Below are positions 30,686 through 63,610 of a DNA stretch of 64,000 nt, in pieces; position 1 is the first letter of the stretch; every line of letters begins with the position of its first letter. The position numbers and the translations under genes are program-made. Location of the stretch: the IMG/VR virus record IMGVR_UViG_3300009503_000022, positions 32,001 through 96,000 of that record. The stretch is one strand, 5' to 3'. This DNA comes from a virus. A model generated the notes under the pieces. The model was given only the letters and a program-made list of their open reading frames with translations, searched no databases and was not told the DNA's origin.

Positions 30686-32641
30686 TTAATATTTAATACA
30701 AACATATAACGTTAAAAATGGCGGAATATTAGATTCTGTACTTACTGTATGATTATGTGTTAAATTCTCACTATTAATTCCATGCTGGTGATTTACTGTA
30801 CCTGATATCGCTCCACTCGTTGTTCCAGAAAATGAATGAGTATGATGTTCTATCGCAAGATGAATATCTGTTCCTGTAGAATACCATCCTGAACGATTAT
30901 TAACATCACTAGTTTCTCCACTATAATAATGTGTATGATTTACATCGAAGAAATTAGTAGCACCACCATGCGAATGAGATCCTAATGCATTACCTGTTGT
31001 ATGCGAATGCGTTGCGCTTCCTCCTGTTAATCCTGGAGTATACGTAACTCCATCTTGCCCTATTATAAATCTTCCTTTTGCATTAGGTAAATATGCATTT
31101 GTATTTCCTGGTCCAATAAAAGGAGTTCCTAAACTTCTTAAATAAACTATTAAATCGTAATATTCTGGATTTGTAGTATAATCAATTAAACTCCCATCAC
31201 ATTCTAACCATCCTGATTTAATAGATAAAAATAATCCTATTTGTCCTACTACTCCACCAAAACTATCTCCTTCATAATATCTACCAAGTTGTAAATTATT
31301 TATCCCAATACTACCAAACTTTCTAAAATCTAATACTCCTTGAACTATAGGATCTGAATTAGGTATCTTAAATAAATATGACGGTGAACCTACCCATTCA
31401 GATGATCCTATTAAAAGAAAATTATTAGCTATAATAGTACTTAGAGATGTTGTATAATTTAAAACTCCACTAGAATCTAAATAAAAATAATAAATACCCG
31501 GAGTACTTCCAGATGTAAATATAAATTCTTGATAATCATCATTTGGCATTACATTTGCCGATATTATATTACTTCTTGTTATTCTATTACCTTTAACGTA
31601 TGCATATTCATCAGTAGCTAAATTATATATTCTTACTGTTTGAGCTCCAGAAAGCGTAATATATAATAAACTTAAAGTTGAATTTTTTCCAGCTGTTCCT
31701 GCTATAATATGATTTGAATGTTGTTCATTCCTATGACCAATCAAATCTTGTCCAGTATATCCTAAATCATAAATTGAAAGTCCATGTGGATTTTTATTCG
31801 TTATTAAATCAGGATTCCCGACTGCTTTTATATGATCTTCTAAACTATAACTTTTATTTTTAGAATACTCAACTGTAACATCAGTTAAATCAGTAGGATT
31901 TTTTACTTTTACTGCTAATGGAGAATGTTGATAATATTTTCTTATATGATTTACATCCTCATAAATAATATCATTTGATAATATAGGATTACCAATTCCA
32001 TTAGCTGTAACTTTTCCTAAATATATTGCTTTAGTATATAAATTATGTCTTGGAGTTCCATCTATAACTGTTATATCTGCAAGTAATGCAACTATTATTT
32101 TATAACCATTTTTTTTATAAGGATATTTTATTCTATTTGTTTCTTGATCTATTACATATTTAGAATTTGGAGCATTCCAATTACCATAAGGATAATAAGG
32201 ATCGCTCGGATCAATTTCTACAGTTTCTACATAGTCTATAAATATAAAATTCGGAACATCTAATCCATAATCTTTTAAAGGAATCGCAATATTGCCACTA
32301 GAATATGGCATAGACTCAGGAGGAATTTGAGTATCTTGCTTATTAACTGAATTAGACCAATTTAAACTAGTATCATAATTTACCGATTCGTTACTAAATA
32401 TTTCTAATCTATCTCCATCTAAATTATATGCGATACCATATCCTATATCGATTTTAGTTGCATCGCTAGAATTAACCGTTATTTTAAACTCACCAGTTTT
32501 ATCAATAGATTTTAAATATAATATCCCTGGCTGATAAATATCTATAGTTCTATTTTTAATTTCTTTCTCTTTCTTTGATTGCATCAAATTTAAATCATTA
32601 GATAATATTTCTTGATTTCCAAAAATATTTATTTTTTCCAT
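30686..32641 (-). CDS. Baseplate/short tail fibre protein with tail-collar domain
   Basis: GWLECDGS..PNAKGRFIIG collar motif; HxH-rich tip; NIPPFLTLYVCIKY. Confidence 0.8.
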   Translation of the reverse strand: MEKINIFGNQEILSNDLNLMQSKKEKEIKNRTIDIYQPGILYLKSIDKTGEFKITVNSSDATKIDIGYGIAYNLDGDRLEIFSNESVNYDTSLNWSNSVNKQDTQIPPESMPYSSGNIAIPLKDYGLDVPNFIFIDYVETVEIDPSDPYYPYGNWNAPNSKYVIDQETNRIKYPYKKNGYKIIVALLADITVIDGTPRHNLYTKAIYLGKVTANGIGNPILSNDIIYEDVNHIRKYYQHSPLAVKVKNPTDLTDVTVEYSKNKSYSLEDHIKAVGNPDLITNKNPHGLSIYDLGYTGQDLIGHRNEQHSNHIIAGTAGKNSTLSLLYITLSGAQTVRIYNLATDEYAYVKGNRITRSNIISANVMPNDDYQEFIFTSGSTPGIYYFYLDSSGVLNYTTSLSTIIANNFLLIGSSEWVGSPSYLFKIPNSDPIVQGVLDFRKFGSIGINNLQLGRYYEGDSFGGVVGQIGLFLSIKSGWLECDGSLIDYTTNPEYYDLIVYLRSLGTPFIGPGNTNAYLPNAKGRFIIGQDGVTYTPGLTGGSATHSHTTGNALGSHSHGGATNFFDVNHTHYYSGETSDVNNRSGWYSTGTDIHLAIEHHTHSFSGTTSGAISGTVNHQHGINSENLTHNHTVSTESNIPPFLTLYVCIKY

Positions 32642-45408: not shown

Positions 45409-46962
45409 TTAAAATGTTACACCAAATGTTATAAATATCCAATTAATATCTAATGTTGGTTTAATATAAAATTTAACATCTATTTGTCTCGGTTCTAAAG
45501 GATTTTGTGTAACCTCTAAATCTCTAAATTCTACAATATCGTTTCTTCTAACTACTGCTCCCAATAAGAATTTTATAAACGCTGTTATATTAGCAATAGT
45601 TTCACTACCTAAATTTCTAGTATTTATAAACGCATTTGTTAAATTTCTTATTAAATATTCAGCTAAACCATCTTTTATCCTTGTAACTTTCAATTCTTGA
45701 GTCGCTACACTTGTTGGATCAGTTGACAAAGCATGCCTAACACGAAAATCACCTGCTTCTTTCTTTTCTATTATGCATACTCCATTTGATGCCATATTAT
45801 TCTTTTCTGCTCTTGTAAAAATATCTCTTATATCTTTAAACGATATAATAGATTTACCTGAAATTGGCTCTGCCCAAGTATAATTAGGATTACAAATTAT
45901 ACCTGCTAAAGCAGCCGCCAAATATGAACCATCTACAGTATAGTCTGTATTATTAATTGTATAAATCTGATCAGAAGGAGATAAATAAGCTACTCTATAA
46001 TGTTTAATAGATGTAGCTGCAGTTATATAATCATTAACATCAGTTGAATTTATAGGAGCCCCTATAATTGAAATTCTAAATTTCCTTTCAAGTAAAGAAG
46101 ACATTTGATCAACATGATTCTTTAAATACGAAATCAAACTATTTCCTGCTTCTAATCCCTTCATCAAAACTATAACATAACATCTCTCATTTTTTAAAGA
46201 ATCTATTGCTTCTTGCAAAGCAGTTACTGTATCATCTTTTGCTTGAACACATAAAACATAAGAAGCACCTTGTTGTTGACATATCTTCGCTCCTATTGAT
46301 AAAGTATTTGTTGATATATCATTTATCTCATACACTGATGTATTATCTGGAACTGTCGTCCAATTTGGTGCAACAGTTAACACTCCAGTAGTAGTATTAC
46401 TAACGATCAACCTTTCTTGACCAACACCTACTCCTGAAGTAATTTTTACATATTTTCCTTTATATTCATTAAGCGTCATTGTTAATCCTGTTGTCAATGT
46501 ATTACTAGTTCCTCCTGTTGCAGTACCTGTTAAAATCAAATTCGGAAATTCAGGTGAACCAAATAAAGAAAATATAGTATCTTGCCTAGTAGTTAAATAA
46601 GGTGCATAATCTGCATCCCCTTTAATATAAGTATAAGTTACATAATATACACTTCCTGTTATCGGTTCATCTCCTGCAGGACTCCAATCGACTTTATCAT
46701 TTGTTAATACATAATCTGTATCTTTTACATAAGTCTTTCCAGCTTTATCTGTAATAGATATTATTTCAAATACTGGAGTCTTTTTTAAATCATCTTGACT
46801 ATTTGCTGCACCTTTTTTAACTTGCTCGACTATTGTTAAAGTCTTTTTACCTAATCCAATAATCGCTGGTATAAAAGCCCCAGGCGGCGCAGCAGGCACT
46901 GTTACATCTGCAAATTGTACATATACACCTGGTTCAGTATATTGTGGTGTAAAAGTTGGCAT
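45409..46962 (-). CDS. Contractile tail sheath protein
   Basis: YTEPGVY N-term, AAALAG, GVCII, RHALST, PRQIDVKFYIKP..INWIFITF. Confidence 0.92.
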   Translation of the reverse strand: MPTFTPQYTEPGVYVQFADVTVPAAPPGAFIPAIIGLGKKTLTIVEQVKKGAANSQDDLKKTPVFEIISITDKAGKTYVKDTDYVLTNDKVDWSPAGDEPITGSVYYVTYTYIKGDADYAPYLTTRQDTIFSLFGSPEFPNLILTGTATGGTSNTLTTGLTMTLNEYKGKYVKITSGVGVGQERLIVSNTTTGVLTVAPNWTTVPDNTSVYEINDISTNTLSIGAKICQQQGASYVLCVQAKDDTVTALQEAIDSLKNERCYVIVLMKGLEAGNSLISYLKNHVDQMSSLLERKFRISIIGAPINSTDVNDYITAATSIKHYRVAYLSPSDQIYTINNTDYTVDGSYLAAALAGIICNPNYTWAEPISGKSIISFKDIRDIFTRAEKNNMASNGVCIIEKKEAGDFRVRHALSTDPTSVATQELKVTRIKDGLAEYLIRNLTNAFINTRNLGSETIANITAFIKFLLGAVVRRNDIVEFRDLEVTQNPLEPRQIDVKFYIKPTLDINWIFITFGVTF

Positions 46963-50052: not shown

Positions 50053-53000
50053 TTAATAATTTAATATTTTTCTTAAATAAGAAGCAGCTTCAAATATCTC
50101 TTTTAAATCTAATTCTTCTATAGTTTTATCCTTTTCCTCTAAATATGCATTTAATTCCATTTCTATTATCTTCTTTGAATTATCATTTATTTTACTTGCT
50201 TTAACTTCATTAAAATATTCTTTTAATAAATTAAAAGCCGCCTTTAATTTAGGATTTTTAATAAATAACCAAGAAAATGGAGCAATAAAATCTATAATCA
50301 TCTTTAATGTCTCTTTAATTCCTGCTTCTTTCTCAATTCCATAATCTAATCTAGTCTTCAATTGAAATTTATCTTCTTCTTTACTTCTAATCATTAACCA
50401 TTTTCTATCTTCCATCGGTATTAAAGTAAATTCTCCCTTTACTTTATCAGTATTTAATCTAAATTTTCTTTTCTTATCTGACCATTCTAATATCTCTGCA
50501 TCTCCAATTGCATAAGTTTCAACTATTCCTGCTCCATATTCACCTTTAGGTATTTCACCTTCAAAATAAATATAATCTACTGGATGATCCTCTGTTTCTA
50601 TAAATAAAACCTTTTGTCCAGGTTCTGGTATTTTCCTCGTAACCCCTGATTTTAAAACACCATCTTTAAATATTCTCCAATCAAAATGTTTACCTGCCTT
50701 TTTTGCATAATGCAATTGAATCCCTGACTTGCCTTCTTCTCTAATTTTAGGTTTTGGTTCAGGAGTAATATCAAAATCTCTTTTTTTCTTATATTCTTCC
50801 AATCTATCATCTTCTTGAGCTTTTTTTAAAAAATATTCGTCTTCAACTTCTTGTAAATATGTAAACTTATTAAATATCTTAACACTTGATTCCAATTTCC
50901 AAGAAGCAGTTTTCAAAAATTTAGTAGTCTTATTTTGAATATCTTTTATTATTGCAGTAACACGAGGAGGTGAAATACCTAAAATCTCTGCAATCTCAAC
51001 TTGACTATATCCTGATACTAACAAATTAAATACCTTCTTACCTACATCTGTAAGAAGATTTAATATTTTATCAAATAAATCATTTACTATTACTTTTTCC
51101 TCAGGTGAATCATACTTAGATTCAATAATATTCTTTATTTTAATAGGAACATCTTTATCTTCATATATAACATCTTCTAAACTATATGCTATTGTATTTA
51201 CTATTTCTTTTTGAAGATATAAATCTCTTATTTCATCTTTTACTCTACCATCTAATTGGTTATATAACCACGTTGAAAATTTTCCTTTTTCTCTATCATA
51301 AGTATCTATTGAATGTAAAATAATTTCATCAATAATAGAAGAAGCATCATAAAACCCTGCTTTTCCTAATTTATTTTCAAATGGATACGCTAACCTTTTT
51401 AATTCAGGATAAATTTCGTTAAATATTTTTTCATCTTTCGTTTCTTTATATCTAATCACTTTTTCATCTAAATCTTCTATTGATGATTTTTTATACAACT
51501 TTTTAAGTACTTTATCTATTTTAGCATCTTCCTTCTCAAAATCAAATAATTTATCTTCATCTATTGGTAAACATACTAATCCTGTTTTTCCTGATAAACT
51601 ATACGGAACTCTTAATCCACCTGCTCTATGTAACGTACTAGTATCTAGCCTACAAGTATTTTCCTTTTTCGTAACTCCAGTAGTCAATCTTTTATCATTT
51701 TTATTTTCTATATATTCTTCTAAAGCTAATTTAATTGCTGTTCTAGCTTCATCTACATCTATTTCTTTTTTTAATATACCATAAACGTGAAATCCTTTTG
51801 AACCAGAAAATACTATCTTAGTATCAACTACATTATCCATTGTTTCTATTAAATCTTTAACCTCAAAAACTATATCCTTTAAATCATCCCAAGAAAATCC
51901 TTCTTTTGGATCTAAATCAACATATAAAAATGGAGTAGTATCCTTAAGAGAAAAATGCCATTCAACATTTCTACCATTATTTAATTTATCAAAATCTTTA
52001 ATATTTATCGGTTTTCCCTCTATCTTTCTTTGAACTATAGTATCATCAACTTTCTTAAATAAAGTCACATCAAGATCATACTTTAAATAAGTTTCTATAA
52101 TATCATCTTTAACAGTATCATAATACAAAAAAATCTCACCTTCATTAAGTCCTTCTTTATAAAATTCATTTGGTTCTACTATTATAGTTTCTGGATGCTT
52201 TGGTTTATAAGCATAAATTAAACTACTTTCTATTTTCATTGATTTACCTTCGTGATAACAAGCATTTTGTTCAAATTCATTAGTATAAATTGTCCATCTA
52301 TTTCTACCTTTATTTTTGGATTCATAAAGTGCTTTATCTGCTTTAGTAAATGAATCATCTATATTAGATTCTAACGGAGCAGCTCCTAAACTTATAGTCA
52401 CTGGTATTTCAGTTTGTTTAGTTTCTTCTTCAACTGTATTTCTTATCAATTCCAATAATTCTTTTAAATCCTCTTCATCATCTAATTCAATAAATATTAC
52501 AAATTCTTCTCCGCCCCATCTAACTATATTTTCTATATCAAGACTTTTAATTAAATCGGCAACTGTCTTTAATACCTCGTCGCCTTTATCGTGACCATAT
52601 TCATCATTAATTTGCTTAAAATGATCTATATCAGTTAAAATTATATAATTATTTTCTTCTAATAATCTTTCTTCATTATCCTCTAACCAATGCCTTGAAT
52701 ACAACCCAGTTAAAGCATCTGTATATAATCTTTTTTTCAATTCCTCGACTTCTTTTTGTAAATCTTTATTTTCATCTATTTCTGATTCTATCTTTCTTAT
52801 TTCAGTCGGATGAACTTCAGATATTATAGATCCATCTTCTAAAGGTTTATCCCACTTGACTACATAATCAACATCATAAATTGTTCCTCCTCGCTCTTCA
52901 GGAGCTATATCTATTATTGTTCCTGTATTATCAAAATTAATTGCCTCTATTTTAGTTCCCTTTTCATAAACTCCTTTTCGCGATTGAAAAGCTTTCAAAC

Positions 53001-56000
53001 GAATCACTTTTTCATTTTTATATATATTCTCATCAAATTTTTTCTTTCTTAAATTTTCATCTAATGTTTCTACTACATTATAATATTTATCTATAATCTT
53101 ATATATTTTCTCTGGATTTCTTAAAAATACAAATTCATCTCTTATTTTTAATTGATCAAAAGTAGTTATTTCCCCTTCTTCTATTCCATGTCTTTTAAAT
53201 AAACTTGAATAACATTGTTTTCTAACTAAATTTACATATTCGCTTTCTTTCTTTAAAAATTCATCTAATTCAGGATATTGCTCTTTAACATCTTTAATTT
53301 TCTTTTCTAAAACATCTAAATATTCTATCATTTTATTCCAATAAGGTTCATAAGAATCGTCCCATATAACTATCTTATTTTTTCCTGTATTCTTACCTAA
53401 TACAAGAGATTTGTGAGCATCTGTAGGAATTTTTCCAATCCCTACAGTTGCTGTATGTCCTGTATTTTTTAAATAAATATCTATAAATTGCTGTCCTAAT
53501 TTTTTGGCTTCTTCTATCGTAATAGGAATACTTATAAATATATTATCTCCACCTTCAAATATTACCTCTCCATTATACTTAGTAATTATTTCTATTATTT
53601 CTTTATTAGCATTTTTTATTTGATTAGATATATTTTTTGCTACTTCTGTATCTTTATCATAAATGGCTTCTTCTACTCTATCTCCAATATCATCACCATC
53701 AATGGCTATATAAACAAGATTACCTTTTTCTGATCTCTGTTTACCAATTTGAGCTTCTTTATGAAAACACTCTTTTCCTTCTGAATACAATACTATTCTA
53801 TCTGGTGAAATAGGTCCAACAACCACAGCAGTTCCTGCTATTCTTAAAGTATCTTCACCGGTTATATCTTTATAATAAACACCCCATTCCGGATCGTGTC
53901 TACTTTTTAGTCCTCTAGGAATTTGCTCATCATGTTTCCAATATAAAAATTTTCCTTCTACATCATCAACATAAGCACCTAAATCGACTAACATTGCATA
54001 ATCTGGTAATAAATCTAAACCTGAAACATCTACTTTATAAATATATTTACCAGGAAACTTTCCTGGTTCTTTAGAAACAAAAACAGATTCTTCTGGTAAC
54101 CAACCATAATCAAAAAATTGTTCCCCAGCTTCTGTTAATCCTTTTGTTTTTCTACCCACTAAACCCTCTTTCAAAATTATTTCTGGAGGAACATTTGTAC
54201 TATGATATAAATATTTAATAGCTTTCTTTTCTAATTCTTCAATCTTTTTCATTACTCCTTTATGAATAAGTCTAGGTTTCATATCCTTTATTTTTTGTAA
54301 AACTTCTTTTTTTAACTCATATAACATCTTAATTTCATCACCAGATGGAGAATATTTAATTGACCAATTTATTTCTCTTACGAGTTCCCATAAATTCCAA
54401 ATTATTAAATCAATAGTTTCACCTGTTGCTTTCATATTTAAAATATCTTTAAAATCTTCTTCTAATTCACTTATAGGTTTACCAATTTGAGCTTCTTTAT
54501 GAAAATATTCTCCTAACTTCATTTGTTCTCTTAATTCCCATATTTTAAATAATTCTGATTCTTGAGCTAAACTTGGACTCCATTGCATTCTTAATCCATC
54601 AAAATGAATCCAATCAACTATTTTATCTATAACATAAAATTTTTCAAAACCTTCTTTTGAATAAGCTTCTTCACCTTGTTTAATCAATTCTTCTATTTTC
54701 TTTATGTTTCTTTTTATAGGTTCTACTTCAACTCTTGTTGTGCCTCCAGTTTTTAATTTATTTAAATGATAAATTAATTCTTCTAAAATTTTATCTAATT
54801 TATCATCATCATAAATACCCTTAGATGCATCAATATAAACTTTTCTTAAATCAGTAAGAAATATTGCTTCTTTGTTTAAAAAAGCTCTTAATTGTTCTAA
54901 CTTATTATTATTTCCATATTGAAAAATATTTGCAATTCTAGACATTAACCAACCCTTTTCCTCAAATCCAGGTATTTGCTCAAGCCTTAAATCTTCTGGA
55001 ATTACTTTCTTATCCTCTCTATATCTTTCTATTCTTGGTTTTCTAATTATCCCTGTCATTTTATCTTCTATTTGTATCCATTTATTATCTTCAAACTTAT
55101 ATGCAGGTCCTTTTTTTATATTTACTTCTTCACCTTGTACTTCTACAATACAAGGTTCTTTAAAAGGATCAACCCAAATTCTACCATCTTCATCTTCAAA
55201 TACTTTATTTCTTTCTGCCCATTCTATAAATTCTAATCGTTCCTTATCAGTAAACCCTGTCCCAACCTTACCATTAAGCCTAAATATCCCTTCTTTATCT
55301 CTAAATGAAGTTAATATTGCGCCCATCTGTTCAGGATGCTTTTTACTTCTTTCTACTGCAACTACAACTAAATCAATAGATAAAATCGGTTTTACCTTAA
55401 CTATTTTATTATCATAATAAATTATAAGTCCTTCATAACCATATTTTTGAGGTTGTACAACCTTATCCCATAATTCGTCTACATCATTTAAATCAGCATT
55501 TTCAAAATATTCTGCTGGCTTTACATACTTTCCTTTGCTAAACAAATTTCTTAATCCACTAATTCTATATGATAAATCTTTATCTTGCCAATCAATTCCA
55601 TCTATACTTATAATATCAAATACTATTATCCTTATTCTTTCTTCATCTTCTTTAGTTTTCGGAGCCTTTAATAAACTCTGAGATTTTAAATAACTTAATG
55701 GAATACCATCTTCACTAACTCCATAAATTTCTCCAACTCCTATAAATTCTTTTAACGGTTTATTTTTTAATAATTCTGTAATTTCATCCGTAACAGGTAA
55801 ATCATAACGAATTGTACCTGCTCTAGTAACTGTTATTGTTCTACCATCTTTATATTCTATTCCAACTATTTCTCCATCTAATTTTACCGATATTGTAAAT
55901 TTCTTACCTTTTAATTTTTCTCTCAATTCATCTATAGTATAAAACTTCATCGACATTCTTTCTTTATAATCACTTACTATAGATGAAATTGGATTTTCTT

Positions 56001-56031
56001 TATCTATTTCTTTTTTAAATGCTAATATCAT
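50053..56031 (-). CDS. Polyprotein: ATP-dependent ligase + ART-like + mCpol + 2x SH3-like + GGDEF + LigD-type primase-polymerase + sigma-70 + LigD-type phosphoesterase
   Basis: KLDG/GEIY/VFDI/EGLII/VGTGF (ligase); YLYHST..EGL..ISPDRI (ART-like); IDGDDIG..GGDN..TVGIG (mCpol); DALTGL..DIDHFK.IND.YGH..GGEEF; VDLDP..SGSKGFHV..RVPYSL (AEP); GKFSTW..GYSQVEIAEILGIS (sigma); EYKKKRDF..QLH..HFDWR..EDHP..FEGEIP.GEYGAG (PE). Confidence 0.9.
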   Translation of the reverse strand: MILAFKKEIDKENPISSIVSDYKERMSMKFYTIDELREKLKGKKFTISVKLDGEIVGIEYKDGRTITVTRAGTIRYDLPVTDEITELLKNKPLKEFIGVGEIYGVSEDGIPLSYLKSQSLLKAPKTKEDEERIRIIVFDIISIDGIDWQDKDLSYRISGLRNLFSKGKYVKPAEYFENADLNDVDELWDKVVQPQKYGYEGLIIYYDNKIVKVKPILSIDLVVVAVERSKKHPEQMGAILTSFRDKEGIFRLNGKVGTGFTDKERLEFIEWAERNKVFEDEDGRIWVDPFKEPCIVEVQGEEVNIKKGPAYKFEDNKWIQIEDKMTGIIRKPRIERYREDKKVIPEDLRLEQIPGFEEKGWLMSRIANIFQYGNNNKLEQLRAFLNKEAIFLTDLRKVYIDASKGIYDDDKLDKILEELIYHLNKLKTGGTTRVEVEPIKRNIKKIEELIKQGEEAYSKEGFEKFYVIDKIVDWIHFDGLRMQWSPSLAQESELFKIWELREQMKLGEYFHKEAQIGKPISELEEDFKDILNMKATGETIDLIIWNLWELVREINWSIKYSPSGDEIKMLYELKKEVLQKIKDMKPRLIHKGVMKKIEELEKKAIKYLYHSTNVPPEIILKEGLVGRKTKGLTEAGEQFFDYGWLPEESVFVSKEPGKFPGKYIYKVDVSGLDLLPDYAMLVDLGAYVDDVEGKFLYWKHDEQIPRGLKSRHDPEWGVYYKDITGEDTLRIAGTAVVVGPISPDRIVLYSEGKECFHKEAQIGKQRSEKGNLVYIAIDGDDIGDRVEEAIYDKDTEVAKNISNQIKNANKEIIEIITKYNGEVIFEGGDNIFISIPITIEEAKKLGQQFIDIYLKNTGHTATVGIGKIPTDAHKSLVLGKNTGKNKIVIWDDSYEPYWNKMIEYLDVLEKKIKDVKEQYPELDEFLKKESEYVNLVRKQCYSSLFKRHGIEEGEITTFDQLKIRDEFVFLRNPEKIYKIIDKYYNVVETLDENLRKKKFDENIYKNEKVIRLKAFQSRKGVYEKGTKIEAINFDNTGTIIDIAPEERGGTIYDVDYVVKWDKPLEDGSIISEVHPTEIRKIESEIDENKDLQKEVEELKKRLYTDALTGLYSRHWLEDNEERLLEENNYIILTDIDHFKQINDEYGHDKGDEVLKTVADLIKSLDIENIVRWGGEEFVIFIELDDEEDLKELLELIRNTVEEETKQTEIPVTISLGAAPLESNIDDSFTKADKALYESKNKGRNRWTIYTNEFEQNACYHEGKSMKIESSLIYAYKPKHPETIIVEPNEFYKEGLNEGEIFLYYDTVKDDIIETYLKYDLDVTLFKKVDDTIVQRKIEGKPINIKDFDKLNNGRNVEWHFSLKDTTPFLYVDLDPKEGFSWDDLKDIVFEVKDLIETMDNVVDTKIVFSGSKGFHVYGILKKEIDVDEARTAIKLALEEYIENKNDKRLTTGVTKKENTCRLDTSTLHRAGGLRVPYSLSGKTGLVCLPIDEDKLFDFEKEDAKIDKVLKKLYKKSSIEDLDEKVIRYKETKDEKIFNEIYPELKRLAYPFENKLGKAGFYDASSIIDEIILHSIDTYDREKGKFSTWLYNQLDGRVKDEIRDLYLQKEIVNTIAYSLEDVIYEDKDVPIKIKNIIESKYDSPEEKVIVNDLFDKILNLLTDVGKKVFNLLVSGYSQVEIAEILGISPPRVTAIIKDIQNKTTKFLKTASWKLESSVKIFNKFTYLQEVEDEYFLKKAQEDDRLEEYKKKRDFDITPEPKPKIREEGKSGIQLHYAKKAGKHFDWRIFKDGVLKSGVTRKIPEPGQKVLFIETEDHPVDYIYFEGEIPKGEYGAGIVETYAIGDAEILEWSDKKRKFRLNTDKVKGEFTLIPMEDRKWLMIRSKEEDKFQLKTRLDYGIEKEAGIKETLKMIIDFIAPFSWLFIKNPKLKAAFNLLKEYFNEVKASKINDNSKKIIEMELNAYLEEKDKTIEELDLKEIFEAASYLRKILNY
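53739..54505. repeat. 29-bp exact direct repeat (53739-53767 and 54477-54505) encoding FHKEAQIGK
   Basis: gtttaccaatttgagcttctttatgaaaa occurs twice, 738 bp apart and in frame. Confidence 0.95.
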
Positions 56032-56411: not shown

Positions 56412-58472
56412 TTATATCTCCTCTTTAATCAATTCTTTAGCTGCATTAACAAATAAATTAAAATCATCAACTTTAACTTTTTTACTTATTCTAGAAAATA
56501 TCTCATCCATATATCCTTCAATAATACTATCATAATTTATATCTATTTTTTTATTATCTTCAGTCGCTATTTTCTTTAATAAATTAGCATCTTCAATAAC
56601 AGCATTAACAATATCGTCTAATTGAATATTTGCTTTAATAAATTCTTTAATAGACGATTCTTTTTCAATAGTATCTTTAATCTCTTTTTTTATTTTCTTT
56701 TGAGTTTTATCATCAAATTCTTTTTTATACTTATCCTTTGCTTTTAAAAATTTTTCTATTTCTTTATCTAACTCTTTTTTCTTTTCTTCAGTTACTTCTT
56801 CATCTACCTTAATTATTTCAGTTGGATGAACTTCAGTAATTGTTTCTCCTGCTACTGGAGTATCCCATTTTATAATATAATCTATATCTCCAGGTTTTTC
56901 ATCATTTTTATAAATTACATATCCCATAAGCCCATTCGTCTGTAATTGAACTCTATCATATACTTCAAATTCGTCTTCTTCTATAGCTGATGTTAATAAT
57001 AATCTATATTTCATTACATTTTCATCTTTATACTCGTTCATTTTAAATTTAAACTCAGTATTATCATCTAAAGATGCAGTCACTATTCCTAATCTTGGAT
57101 CAAATCGTCTATAAGTATAAATATCAGGACTATTTTCAAATTGAAATTTATCACCTAATTTTAATTCACTAAACTTAACATATCCTTGTTTTTGATATAT
57201 TTTATCGTAATCTTGAATAGATTCTTTTTTCTTCATCTTTTTATCTTTTTTTATTTCTTTATCATAAGATTTTTGTAATTTTTTTTCAGATTTAGATTTA
57301 TCTATTTTCCTTTCCATATTCATATTAACACCCTCGGATAATTCTGGTAATTCTCTAAATTTAACAGTAGAATTATCAGAAACATTTAAAGTATCTATAT
57401 TAATAGTTGTATCTGATTTTCTATTTAATGAAGATCTTAAACTTGCTATTTTCCTCAATCTATTAGGATATTTCTCTAATAAATCTTTAATATTGCCTCT
57501 TAAACCAGTTACATCCCCTTCTATATTTGTAACATTTCCTTCAATATAAGAAACATCTCCTTTTATGTTAGATACATCTCCTTTTAAATAAGAAACATTT
57601 CCCCTTATATTAGATACATCTCCTACAATATTTGAAGCATCTCCATATATATTTGAAGCATCTCCATATATATTTGAAGCATCTCCATATATTTTAGATT
57701 TATCCCCTGTTACATTTTCATCATTAATCAATCTACTTTTTTGTGATTTTATTCTTAATGAAGACTTTTTCGTTCTTTTAAATTTTTCAAATAAATCTGG
57801 ATTTTCACTAATAAACTTATTTACACCATCCATAAACCATACATGCCACCCAGAACCTTCTGTTTCTAATTTCTTTTTTATACTTTCCCAACCTTCTTCA
57901 AAATAATATTCTGCTTCTTTTTGAGCTTTTTTATCACCTTTATAAGCAGGATCTATAATTAAACTATCCATAAGATCAATTGCATATTCTTGTATTGGAG
58001 TTTCAAGTTTAATAACATCCGATTTTCTTAATTGCATATTTCCTCCTAAATTTGCAAAAGATTTCTCTAATACATCTTGAGGATTTTCTATAACCATTTT
58101 ATCTCGAGGAACTTTTTGCTCTTCAGGAAATACAAAAAGATCATCTTTTAAAATAGTATCATTTTGAGATTTCCTTTCTAATAATCTTTTTACAAAATCT
58201 CTCCATTCTTCCTTATTTTCTTCTACCATTCCATCAAATATTTCTTTTGCTTTATCTTCTGTAACATCATAAATATTCATAAAATACTTTACTATTTCTG
58301 AATCTATATCATCGGCAATTTTTTCTAAAGTAAATTCGCTTCCTGTATCTAATTCAGGATTAGATGATATATCAGGATTAGTTTTAAAATAATCCAACTC
58401 GTGAAATTTTCCTGAATCATGTGGATATTTAATCTCATCAAATCCACCTTGAGCTTTACGTCTCAAATTCAT
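56412..58472 (-). CDS. Second modular polyprotein-like head protein (beta-helix repeat, tandem SH3-like domains)
   Basis: GD(A/V)SNI heptad repeat; EVHPTEI domain shared with the 1992-aa protein; many K-x-A/S linkers. Confidence 0.6.
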   Translation of the reverse strand: MNLRRKAQGGFDEIKYPHDSGKFHELDYFKTNPDISSNPELDTGSEFTLEKIADDIDSEIVKYFMNIYDVTEDKAKEIFDGMVEENKEEWRDFVKRLLERKSQNDTILKDDLFVFPEEQKVPRDKMVIENPQDVLEKSFANLGGNMQLRKSDVIKLETPIQEYAIDLMDSLIIDPAYKGDKKAQKEAEYYFEEGWESIKKKLETEGSGWHVWFMDGVNKFISENPDLFEKFKRTKKSSLRIKSQKSRLINDENVTGDKSKIYGDASNIYGDASNIYGDASNIVGDVSNIRGNVSYLKGDVSNIKGDVSYIEGNVTNIEGDVTGLRGNIKDLLEKYPNRLRKIASLRSSLNRKSDTTINIDTLNVSDNSTVKFRELPELSEGVNMNMERKIDKSKSEKKLQKSYDKEIKKDKKMKKKESIQDYDKIYQKQGYVKFSELKLGDKFQFENSPDIYTYRRFDPRLGIVTASLDDNTEFKFKMNEYKDENVMKYRLLLTSAIEEDEFEVYDRVQLQTNGLMGYVIYKNDEKPGDIDYIIKWDTPVAGETITEVHPTEIIKVDEEVTEEKKKELDKEIEKFLKAKDKYKKEFDDKTQKKIKKEIKDTIEKESSIKEFIKANIQLDDIVNAVIEDANLLKKIATEDNKKIDINYDSIIEGYMDEIFSRISKKVKVDDFNLFVNAAKELIKEEI
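57490..57720 (-). repeat. 21-bp coding tandem repeat (7-aa GDASNIY)
   Basis: Three perfect copies at 57628-57690 within about 11 degenerate units. Confidence 0.9.
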
Positions 58473-62629: not shown

Positions 62630-63610
62630 TTACACAATTGTAAACTTGGTAATACCAGCGGTATTGTGAATACCAATACCAATCTGTTCCCAACCTACTA
62701 TATCATACTGATTTTTTGGAATATTATCAAATATCTTAACTTCAACTGCTTTCCTTTCTGGAATTCTTCCTAATTTATCAGGTGTCGTAAATACATATAC
62801 TGTTTTTGCAGGACATCTTGTAGTTACAAGCATCCTTGCTCCATATATAGAACCAAACAACCCAGTTTCAACTATTGTATTCAACGAAACCTGATCTAAA
62901 TCTGTAGAATTCCACTTTAAAATATCTGCATATTGCTCTGGATTCATCATCACTCCACCAACAATTAACTGATTTGCTAAGATCTGCTTATATGCATCTG
63001 CAAGAGCATATCTAGTTACTGAAGAAGCAGTAAATGGAGTATTAGGTCCATTTACGACTGCTGCCTCCATAACTTTAACTATCTCATCATCTTCCGCAAT
63101 TGCCATAGCAATAGCAACCCTCTCTTTACCTCTATCAAATGCAGGATATCTCCTGATTTGAATTTCTTCCCATTTTAATTCATGATCAATTGAAATTGGA
63201 AATGTAGGGAATTGCACCCTCTTTATATTTGCTTGAAATCTAGGAGCCTCTCCTCTTGCTGCAACTACTACTGCTCCAAATTCTGGAATATCCAAATCAT
63301 AAATTGGAAATTCCCCTTGAGGTATTTCATCTACCAGTAATACCCTATTTCTTCCAACTGCTACATAATCTAATCTACTCTTTAGAGGAACCTGCATAGC
63401 AAATGCAACCCTCTTTAAACCATTAGGTCCAGTAAATATAGCATTAAAAGCTTTCTCAGCTTTTTCAATCATCGCAGATGTAGGAACTACTGGCGATGAA
63501 GCTGTCCTTGAAAATCCATCTTCTCCAAGAACTGATTCAGAAATTTTTAATAAATTTTTAATAAACTCGTCTTTCTGTCTAGAAGATAAATTACTTAATT
63601 TCCCTATCAT
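62630..63610 (-). CDS. Major capsid protein (HK97 fold)
   Basis: PLKSRLDY..GR..LLVDEIPQG..P.YD, EDDE, VMMNP..YADI, G.IYGA, EQIGIGIHN; followed by a terminator. Confidence 0.85.
   Translation of the reverse strand: MIGKLSNLSSRQKDEFIKNLLKISESVLGEDGFSRTASSPVVPTSAMIEKAEKAFNAIFTGPNGLKRVAFAMQVPLKSRLDYVAVGRNRVLLVDEIPQGEFPIYDLDIPEFGAVVVAARGEAPRFQANIKRVQFPTFPISIDHELKWEEIQIRRYPAFDRGKERVAIAMAIAEDDEIVKVMEAAVVNGPNTPFTASSVTRYALADAYKQILANQLIVGGVMMNPEQYADILKWNSTDLDQVSLNTIVETGLFGSIYGARMLVTTRCPAKTVYVFTTPDKLGRIPERKAVEVKIFDNIPKNQYDIVGWEQIGIGIHNTAGITKFTIV

Follow-up and report, generated by a model that had tools for sequence, protein, structure and literature searches.

A stretch of 64,000 nucleotides (the window), positions 32,001 to 96,000 of the IMG/VR virus record IMGVR_UViG_3300009503_000022, contains on its minus strand a 1,992-amino-acid (aa) open reading frame (ORF), here P0001, in which 53365–53712 encodes a genuine minimal Cas10-like polymerase (mCpol) with intact catalytic residues. 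The mCpol is a domain within a multi-domain ORF, which also includes a GGDEF diguanylate cyclase, and not a separate gene. This point was absent from the initial annotation, in which mCpol palm motifs were noticed at 53350–53725 (aa 770–894) and read as a possible phage counter-defence that supplies or mimics an immune signal. The explanation preferred here, held with a little less than even confidence, is that the domain is a cyclic-adenylate synthase, one module of a protein that is made late, packaged in the head and injected, and that interferes with host nucleotide signalling. To our knowledge, the only roles known for mCpol are those of the bacterial partner in Panoptes-type guards and of the presumed ancestor of Cas10. 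The domain was reportedly defined by Burroughs et al. in 2015; in a literature search, which did not cover that study, neither a phage-encoded mCpol nor a phage countermeasure to Panoptes was found described.

The Pfam mCpol profile PF18182 matches P0001 over profile positions 1–113 of 114 (E 1.1e-18, 68.1 bits against a cut-off of 26.4) and the NCBIfam mCpol model NF033576 matches at 52.1 bits (cut-off 40). The motifs of the initial annotation lie in one minus-strand frame, with YIAIDGDD from aa 774, FEGGDNIF from aa 825 and GKNTGKNK from aa 879, and by both profiles the match is far beyond chance. A six-frame mCpol search over the whole record gave 75.3 bits. When the PDB was searched with phmmer, the only significant matches were the two solved Panoptes synthases, 9NWN (3.3e-9) and 9MNR (3.8e-9), both end-to-end. 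An AlphaFold2 model of aa 762–900 has a predicted local distance difference test (pLDDT) value of 93.5. The top Foldseek matches of this model in the PDB are OptS/mCpol chains, with target-normalised template modelling (TM) scores of 0.80–0.86 and root mean square deviations (rmsd) of 2.0–2.4 Å (9NWN_A, TM 0.86, rmsd 2.0 Å; 9PD0 and 9MNR, TM 0.80–0.83). GGDEF domains and Cas10 rank below these chains, and Dpo4 and Rev1 appear at low rank. The Cas10-palm profile PF22335 matches at 45.9 bits, and there is one palm-2-like match only, at aa 775–866. The assignment to mCpol is thus borne out by both profile and structure.

The ORF, its mCpol domain and the features of that domain are as follows.

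50053–56031, minus strand: P0001, an uninterrupted 1,992-aa polyvalent ORF, from Pfam and NCBIfam domains
53365–53712, minus strand: mCpol palm domain, aa 774–889, from PF18182, NF033576, PDB matches and the model
53692–53700, minus strand: D778-G779-D780, first metal-binding motif; D778 aligns with KpOptS Asp6 (PMC12657218) and D780 is kept in 146 of 147 clade sequences
53626–53628, minus strand: S802, predicted adenine-selecting residue; aligns with mCpol S30 (PMC12657230), and the position is Ser in 125 of the 147 clade sequences
53542–53553, minus strand: G827-G828-D829-N830, GGD(N) hairpin; D829 aligns with KpOptS Asp57 (PMC12657218) and is kept in 145 of 147
53188–53358, minus strand: helical extension after the palm, aa ~892–948 (IVIWD..YEPYW..), conserved in the relatives P0016–P0019 and P0023

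The active-site residues of KpOptS are Asp6 and Asp57 (PMC12657218), and adenine is selected in mCpol by the serine S30 (PMC12657230). D829 is invariant in each of the alignments A1, A3 and A4. The catalytic aspartates are invariant or nearly so in the 24 closest and the next 117 relatives, a pattern that speaks for selection on catalysis. The second selectivity position, N34 of mCpol, is a lysine in P0001. Judged from its residues, the domain is apparently catalytically competent, with a cyclic adenylate as its predicted product, and the phage probably makes an immune-type nucleotide. In mCpol the pocket for two ATP is formed by a homodimer; prediction of a homodimer for this domain scored 0.33 against a mark of 0.42, a value that speaks neither for nor against a dimer. 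The first helix of the extension is modelled at pLDDT 85–92 and the second more weakly; in a longer AlphaFold model (aa 762–1090) pLDDT falls below 50 past the extension, a region in which a sensor domain could lie although none was seen, and the ESM Atlas gave no usable match for aa 895–1085.

Searched exhaustively and without a profile, the domain has 695 related cluster representatives at E ≤1e-3, 119 of them at E ≤1e-10. The 24 closest relatives (37–55% identical) all have several domains, of which, apart from one GGDEF and one inorganic pyrophosphatase, few could be recognised. The next 117 have occasional NUDIX, GNAT, 2H, SAM-lyase and DUF5661 domains, and no CARF, SAVED, HEPN or membrane-effector family was found in them. 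Inspection by eye also showed tails that are strongly acidic or strongly basic among the relatives, together with a zincin-type HExxH motif and a ParB-like segment. In a tree of the domain, 147 multidomain sequences are separated from 19 stand-alone or cellular sequences of 117–142 aa (support 0.90), the cellular group including Streptomyces, Methanosarcinales and OptS-like genes. P0001 groups with P0016–P0019 and P0023 (support 0.92). The tree was sampled from the best 150 hits of the query and is therefore uninformative on overall proportions; the phage origin of most of these 150 rests on IMG/VR loci and architecture. Pattern scans of IMG/VR gave at least 30 viral loci, six from the close clade and 24 from a clade with acidic tails, and in prokaryote genomes, one per species, only distant mCpol at 23–32% identity was found. 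At 50% identity the multidomain clade falls into more than 130 clusters. Its diversity far exceeds that of the Panoptes loci, of which 109 were counted in one survey (PMC12657230), and it is old enough to be common to phages with homologous portals.

The domain is of the same Pfam family and has the same single-palm fold as the Panoptes OptS/mCpol proteins (KpOptS, 9MNR and 9PD0; ECOR31 mCpol, 9NWN; PMC12657218, PMC12657230; type II, PMC13577387). The N-terminal YIAIDGDD strand, both catalytic aspartates and the adenine-selecting serine are shared with them. The Panoptes synthase is, however, a 14-kDa stand-alone bacterial protein, whereas the mCpol of P0001 is embedded in a phage protein of 1,992 aa, lies in a phage structural module and belongs to a clade separate from that of the cellular OptS. 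It also has a fuller GGDN than KpOptS, in which the motif is AADG, and a conserved helical extension. No OptE was found with P0001: Cap15_CD_rec (PF18153, OptE-type) has no match in the 110-kb record, in agreement with the initial annotation, in which no effector gene was seen adjacent to the mCpol. As a positive control, PF18153 was found ~260 bp from the OptS-like mCpol gene, itself with an AADG motif, in L020, a Panoptes locus of an alphaproteobacterium; the genome in which L019 lies has a match as well. The lack of a Cap15-type receptor despite this working control means that the phage copy is not a Panoptes system. A family search gave no recognisable effector among the genes neighbouring the ORF, and no CARF-TM effector family was matched there, no dedicated CARF-TM profile having been used.

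These comparisons bear on the role that was first proposed for the domain, in which an injected mCpol resupplies the inhibitory nucleotide, keeping a Panoptes-type effector off, so that a phage that depletes cyclic nucleotides escapes the guard. Among solved structures the nearest relatives are indeed Panoptes synthases, the catalytic residues and the adenine-selecting serine are retained, and no effector accompanies the phage domain. Such a role would be well served by delivery at the onset of infection, and no phage countermeasure to Panoptes was found in the literature searched. The role presumes, however, a phage sponge or nuclease that trips Panoptes. The 2H/Acb1-type family PF13563 is present in none of 31 mCpol-bearing viral records including this one, three of which are 93–99% complete and most of which are fragments. 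Tad2-like PF11195 is likewise found in none of nine mCpol viral records, Acb2, Tad1 and other sponges not having been searched, and AcrIII-1 (PF08960) was not found in this record, the only one scanned for it. The phage clade lies apart from the OptS-like genes, as both the tree and the low identities show, and its clusters outnumber the surveyed Panoptes loci. Together with the fusion to GGDEF, the separate clade and the lack of any of the sponges or nucleases looked for leave the specific antidote role unsupported and in part weaken it, and likewise that of a decoy for the cyclic-oligonucleotide-based anti-phage signalling system (CBASS) or type III CRISPR. The antidote is therefore rather unlikely. 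What stands of the earlier functional reading is a phage-encoded mCpol, without an effector, for which injection is reasonable. The fusion of mCpol to a GGDEF diguanylate cyclase suggests that nucleotide signals are manipulated more broadly.

The case for injection begins with the position of the gene. Matches to PHROGs families identify a portal, a protease-bearing 753-aa protein, a major capsid protein, a tail sheath and a baseplate wedge in the record, in the order portal, protease, capsid, then the 1,992-aa ORF, then the tail sheath.

62630–63610, minus strand: major capsid protein, phrog_2522 (E 2.7e-31), 31.6% identical to Bacillus phage G gp27
45409–46962, minus strand: tail sheath, phrog_2839 (E 5.1e-35)
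50083–50307, minus strand: conserved C-terminal tail of P0001, aa 1909–1983, candidate packaging anchor (tail profile, 31.9 bits, E 2e-9)

In five other viral loci (L006–L010), homologues of this phage's portal and head protease are encoded 4–5 kb downstream of the mCpol gene, on its strand. In L027, from an unrelated lineage, the place of the mCpol gene is between those for a virion structural protein and the tail sheath. The mCpol gene is in the structural module at every locus with identifiable neighbours. It is thus found where virion-packaged proteins are encoded, which makes injection reasonable, and the phage may inject the mCpol synthase. A profile made from the tails of P0016, P0018 and P0023 hits the C-terminal 75 residues of P0001 (in a set of ~300 sequences). 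A word-indexed search for this C-terminal tail found nothing; the match was made by the local profile. The four proteins share the tail and differ in their internal domains, which fits an anchor with exchangeable cargo, and the tail is a candidate packaging anchor.

The favoured mechanism, in which packaging, cleavage, injection, product and target are predictions, would proceed as follows. P0001 would be made late alongside the particle proteins and probably loaded into the head, with the conserved C-terminal tail as its anchor; the head protease might cleave it at EYFxKxAQ linkers. The cargo would be released with the DNA into the next host, where an mCpol dimer would convert ATP to cyclic di- or oligo-adenylate before phage gene expression. 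The GGDEF module would make cyclic di-GMP in parallel, and host nucleotide-based immune or physiological signalling would be distorted.

The other domains of P0001, and a neighbouring gene that shares sequence with it, are as follows.

55009–55941, minus strand: ATP-dependent DNA ligase, aa 31–341 (PF01068 and PF04679)
52786–53217, minus strand: module common to P0001 and the 686-aa neighbour, aa 939–1082 (blastp, 30% identity over 149 aa, E 1.2e-8; no confident model)
52297–52725, minus strand: GGDEF diguanylate cyclase, aa 1103–1245, motif GGEEF (PF00990, E 9.9e-31)
51487–51948, minus strand: LigD-type primase-polymerase (PrimPol), aa 1362–1515 (PF21686, E 4.1e-13)
50929–51429, minus strand: sigma-70 module of extracytoplasmic function (ECF) type, aa 1535–1701 (TIGR02937, 45.4 bits, cut-off 42.9)
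50377–50802, minus strand: LigD 3'-phosphoesterase, aa 1744–1885 (TIGR02777, E 7.6e-30; PF13298)
56412–58472, minus strand: 686-aa neighbour that has a module and the linker motif in common with P0001 (blastp, motif count)

Five enzymatic domains and a sigma-70 module, above curated cut-offs, are therefore joined in one chain, and this chain sits between capsid and sheath, as is expected of a polyvalent protein linked to virion genes. The GGDEF domain is complete and is preceded by a coiled coil.

A late protein need not be injected, and P0001 could instead be a cytoplasmic multi-enzyme that sets the levels of cyclic di-AMP-like nucleotides and cyclic di-GMP, with effects on physiology, receptor display, superinfection or lysis timing. 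The gene is within a late operon, its mCpol is joined to a complete GGDEF after a coiled coil, and diguanylate cyclases of phages and prophages are annotated in deposited records. The ligase, PrimPol, phosphoesterase and sigma factor together, however, make most sense at genome entry, and the recurrent adjacency to portal and protease, the common C-terminal tail and the scaffold-like acidic tails of some relatives fit packaging. GGDEF was found in none of five other mCpol phage records, and is not a general partner of phage mCpol. Action in the producing cell alone is thus considered unlikely, although it is the strongest of the alternatives.

The fusion to ligase, PrimPol and phosphoesterase could also suggest that the domain has no part in signalling, and is either a nucleotidyl transferase or polymerase for LigD-type end repair or a fold kept without catalysis. 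The palm superfamily does include polymerases, such as the low-ranking Dpo4 and Rev1. Most relatives, however, are without repair domains, the active-site and base-selecting residues match those of cyclases, and cyclases are the best structural matches by a wide margin, which leaves this most improbable. Almost as improbable is a second-messenger circuit of the phage's own, in which mCpol signals to a phage-encoded receptor. There is room for one in the ~200 residues after mCpol and in several neighbouring genes to which no function could be assigned. Against it, no SAVED or Cap15-type receptor was found in the record, and no CARF, SAVED or HEPN family is fused to mCpol in the 141 relatives.

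P0001 may be cleaved, and a repeated linker is a possible site.

53740–53766, minus strand: linker FHKEAQIGK, aa 756–764, a copy ending 9 residues before mCpol, identical in DNA to 54478–54504
54478–54504, minus strand: second FHKEAQIGK copy, aa 510–518, identical in DNA to 53740–53766

The two copies bracket a cassette of 246 codons, and there is a third related junction, EYFLKKAQ, at aa 1731–1738. The motif [KR][KRE]AQ was found five times against 1.1 expected in a proteome of 33.7 thousand residues, and only in P0001 and its 686-aa neighbour, which is suggestive of a processing site. Self-splicing of the intein type at Cys-containing linkers was considered and dropped, because inspection of the sequence found the intein end motifs to be absent.

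Several points weigh against delivery of an active, processed synthase. The evidence from the linkers is thin, because two of the five sites come from a single recent duplication. No peptidase family (Pfam) was found in P0001, the head protease of the record being a separate gene. A tblastn search of 50,697 deposited phage records found no mCpol domain of this clade, and the phage itself is uncultured. A protein made late could equally act in the producing cell. The fourth position of the hairpin is Asn rather than Asp or Glu; a working OptS has Gly there, and since KpOptS is still active with AADG, the Asn of GGDN is no argument against activity.

Polyvalent proteins of phages and conjugative elements have been predicted to be delivered with DNA (Iyer, Burroughs, Anand, de Souza and Aravind 2017, PMC5512222). 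P0001 resembles them in the presence of unrelated enzymatic domains in one chain, in its phage origin and in its link to virion genes. It differs in having no zincin-type peptidase or MuF/portal fusion, so that any processing would fall to the separate head protease. A built-in processing peptidase is a common, non-obligatory theme of the class (PMC5512222). The relatives of P0001 have features typical of it, including zincin-type HExxH, a ParB-like segment, GNAT, inorganic pyrophosphatase, SAM lyase and acidic or basic tails. GGDEF and RelA/SpoT are listed among the rare nucleotide-signal modules of polyvalent proteins; mCpol, LigD and 'sigma factor' do not occur in the text of that paper (PMC5512222).

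The palm of P0001 is homologous to that of the Cas10 of type III CRISPR (PF22335; Csm1/Cmr2 in Foldseek). Unlike Cas10, the phage protein has a single palm, no HD domain and no Csm/Cmr partners, and is encoded by a virus. Neither the ORF nor those of its neighbours that were scanned gave a match to a CRISPR-associated family. Enzymes delivered by phage virions include T4 Alt and internal proteins, and the N4 virion RNA polymerase. Thermus phage P23-45 has an RNA polymerase fused to its tape measure (bioRxiv 10.1101/2022.12.01.518664). P0001 is like these enzymes in the position of its gene among structural genes and in its proposed action before phage expression, and none of them is a second-messenger synthase. 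Delivery of these enzymes has been shown by experiment, whereas for P0001 it is a prediction.

Recurrent, apparently active mCpol cargo in phages would mean that viruses synthesise immune-type nucleotides, besides degrading and sequestering them. A broader proposal is that in several lineages of large tailed phages an active Cas10-like cyclase is loaded into the capsid, here maybe as a dual mCpol–GGDEF unit, and injected, so that the virus sets the cyclic-nucleotide pool of the host from the first seconds of infection. Guards that kill when an inhibitory nucleotide vanishes, such as Panoptes types I and II and diadenylate-cyclase analogues, would thereby be disarmed. No second-messenger synthase delivered by a virion would have been known before, and the contest of sponge and guard would have entered a further round. 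This proposal is quite doubtful. With its cyclases, its sigma factor and its full set of end-repair enzymes, P0001 may also illustrate in one protein what a phage could require early in the infection of a hot-spring host.

Ligase, PrimPol and 3'-phosphoesterase, the full set of LigD activities, all occur in P0001, scattered among unrelated modules. The sigma-70 module, if released in the host, could redirect RNA polymerase before phage expression. The closest relative in architecture is P0017/P0165 (774 aa; on contigs of 113 and 141 kb), with mCpol, a HAD-like stretch, GGDEF and the start of the LigD phosphoesterase. The order mCpol, GGDEF, phosphoesterase is the same as in P0001, with other modules between. 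P0017/P0165 ends abruptly within the phosphoesterase despite the long contigs, and a frameshift, an intervening element or a split gene is possible. A scan of viral contigs with P0017 as the query found nothing, and a metagenome scan gave ordinary GGDEF genes and nothing useful. Three further proteins, P0002–P0004 (1,470–2,771 aa), share the LigD phosphoesterase module at 43% identity. Their cargo differs, including DJ-1/PfpI, 2H phosphoesterase, ASCH and RNA/DNA ligase, which points to a wider family of giant proteins with exchangeable modules.

Among the more distant relatives, the IMG/VR loci L021–L044 form a subclade with an N-terminal cyclase, an extremely acidic low-complexity stretch of 150–300 aa and a conserved C-terminal helix (..FKENKE.LEQ....NPELY..). 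This architecture resembles a scaffolding-type tail that binds the capsid. There are 24 of these viral loci, three on near-complete genomes of 149–163 kb. In the metagenome proteins P0041–P0046, P0055 and P0058, mCpol is followed by a long and very basic Lys/Arg-rich tail, as for a protein packed with DNA. Two tandem mCpol domains are found within ~300 aa in P0021 and P0040, which may be a covalent version of the dimer. The inorganic pyrophosphatase (PF18823) among the 24 closest relatives would pull a cyclase reaction forward; its assignment to P0030 (1,297 aa) is a guess.

The record is 110,355 bp in length, with a CheckV completeness of 76%, a G+C content of ~26% and all its genes on the minus strand, and the source DNA is present in two hot-springs metagenome runs. 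Judged from sequence, the phage is a phage G-like myovirus, the nearest similarity of both portal and capsid being to Bacillus phage G (27% and 32% identity). Kinship with Myxococcus phage Mx1 was rejected, since portal and capsid lead to Bacillus phage G and there is no Myxococcus phage among the matches listed. No tRNA genes were found across the whole record, which therefore gives no host clue from tRNAs. The similarity of the capsid protein at 62630–63610 to phage G gp27 starts at aa 63, and the first ~62 residues may be a propeptide lost at maturation. In the 753-aa protein (L002:1169–3430, minus strand, which is G000 96169–98430), homology to head-maturation proteases is limited to aa 79–245 and the long C-terminal part matches no family. 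In the 686-aa neighbour of P0001 a seven-residue unit, GD[AV]SNI[YVRK], is repeated in tandem approximately ten times, and the N-terminus of the protein, MNLRRKAQ, contains the linker motif. The minus strand of the window carries all ORFs of at least 100 aa except three short overlapping ones, GC skew is uniformly and strongly negative (−0.20 to −0.46), and G+C ranges from 20 to 31%.

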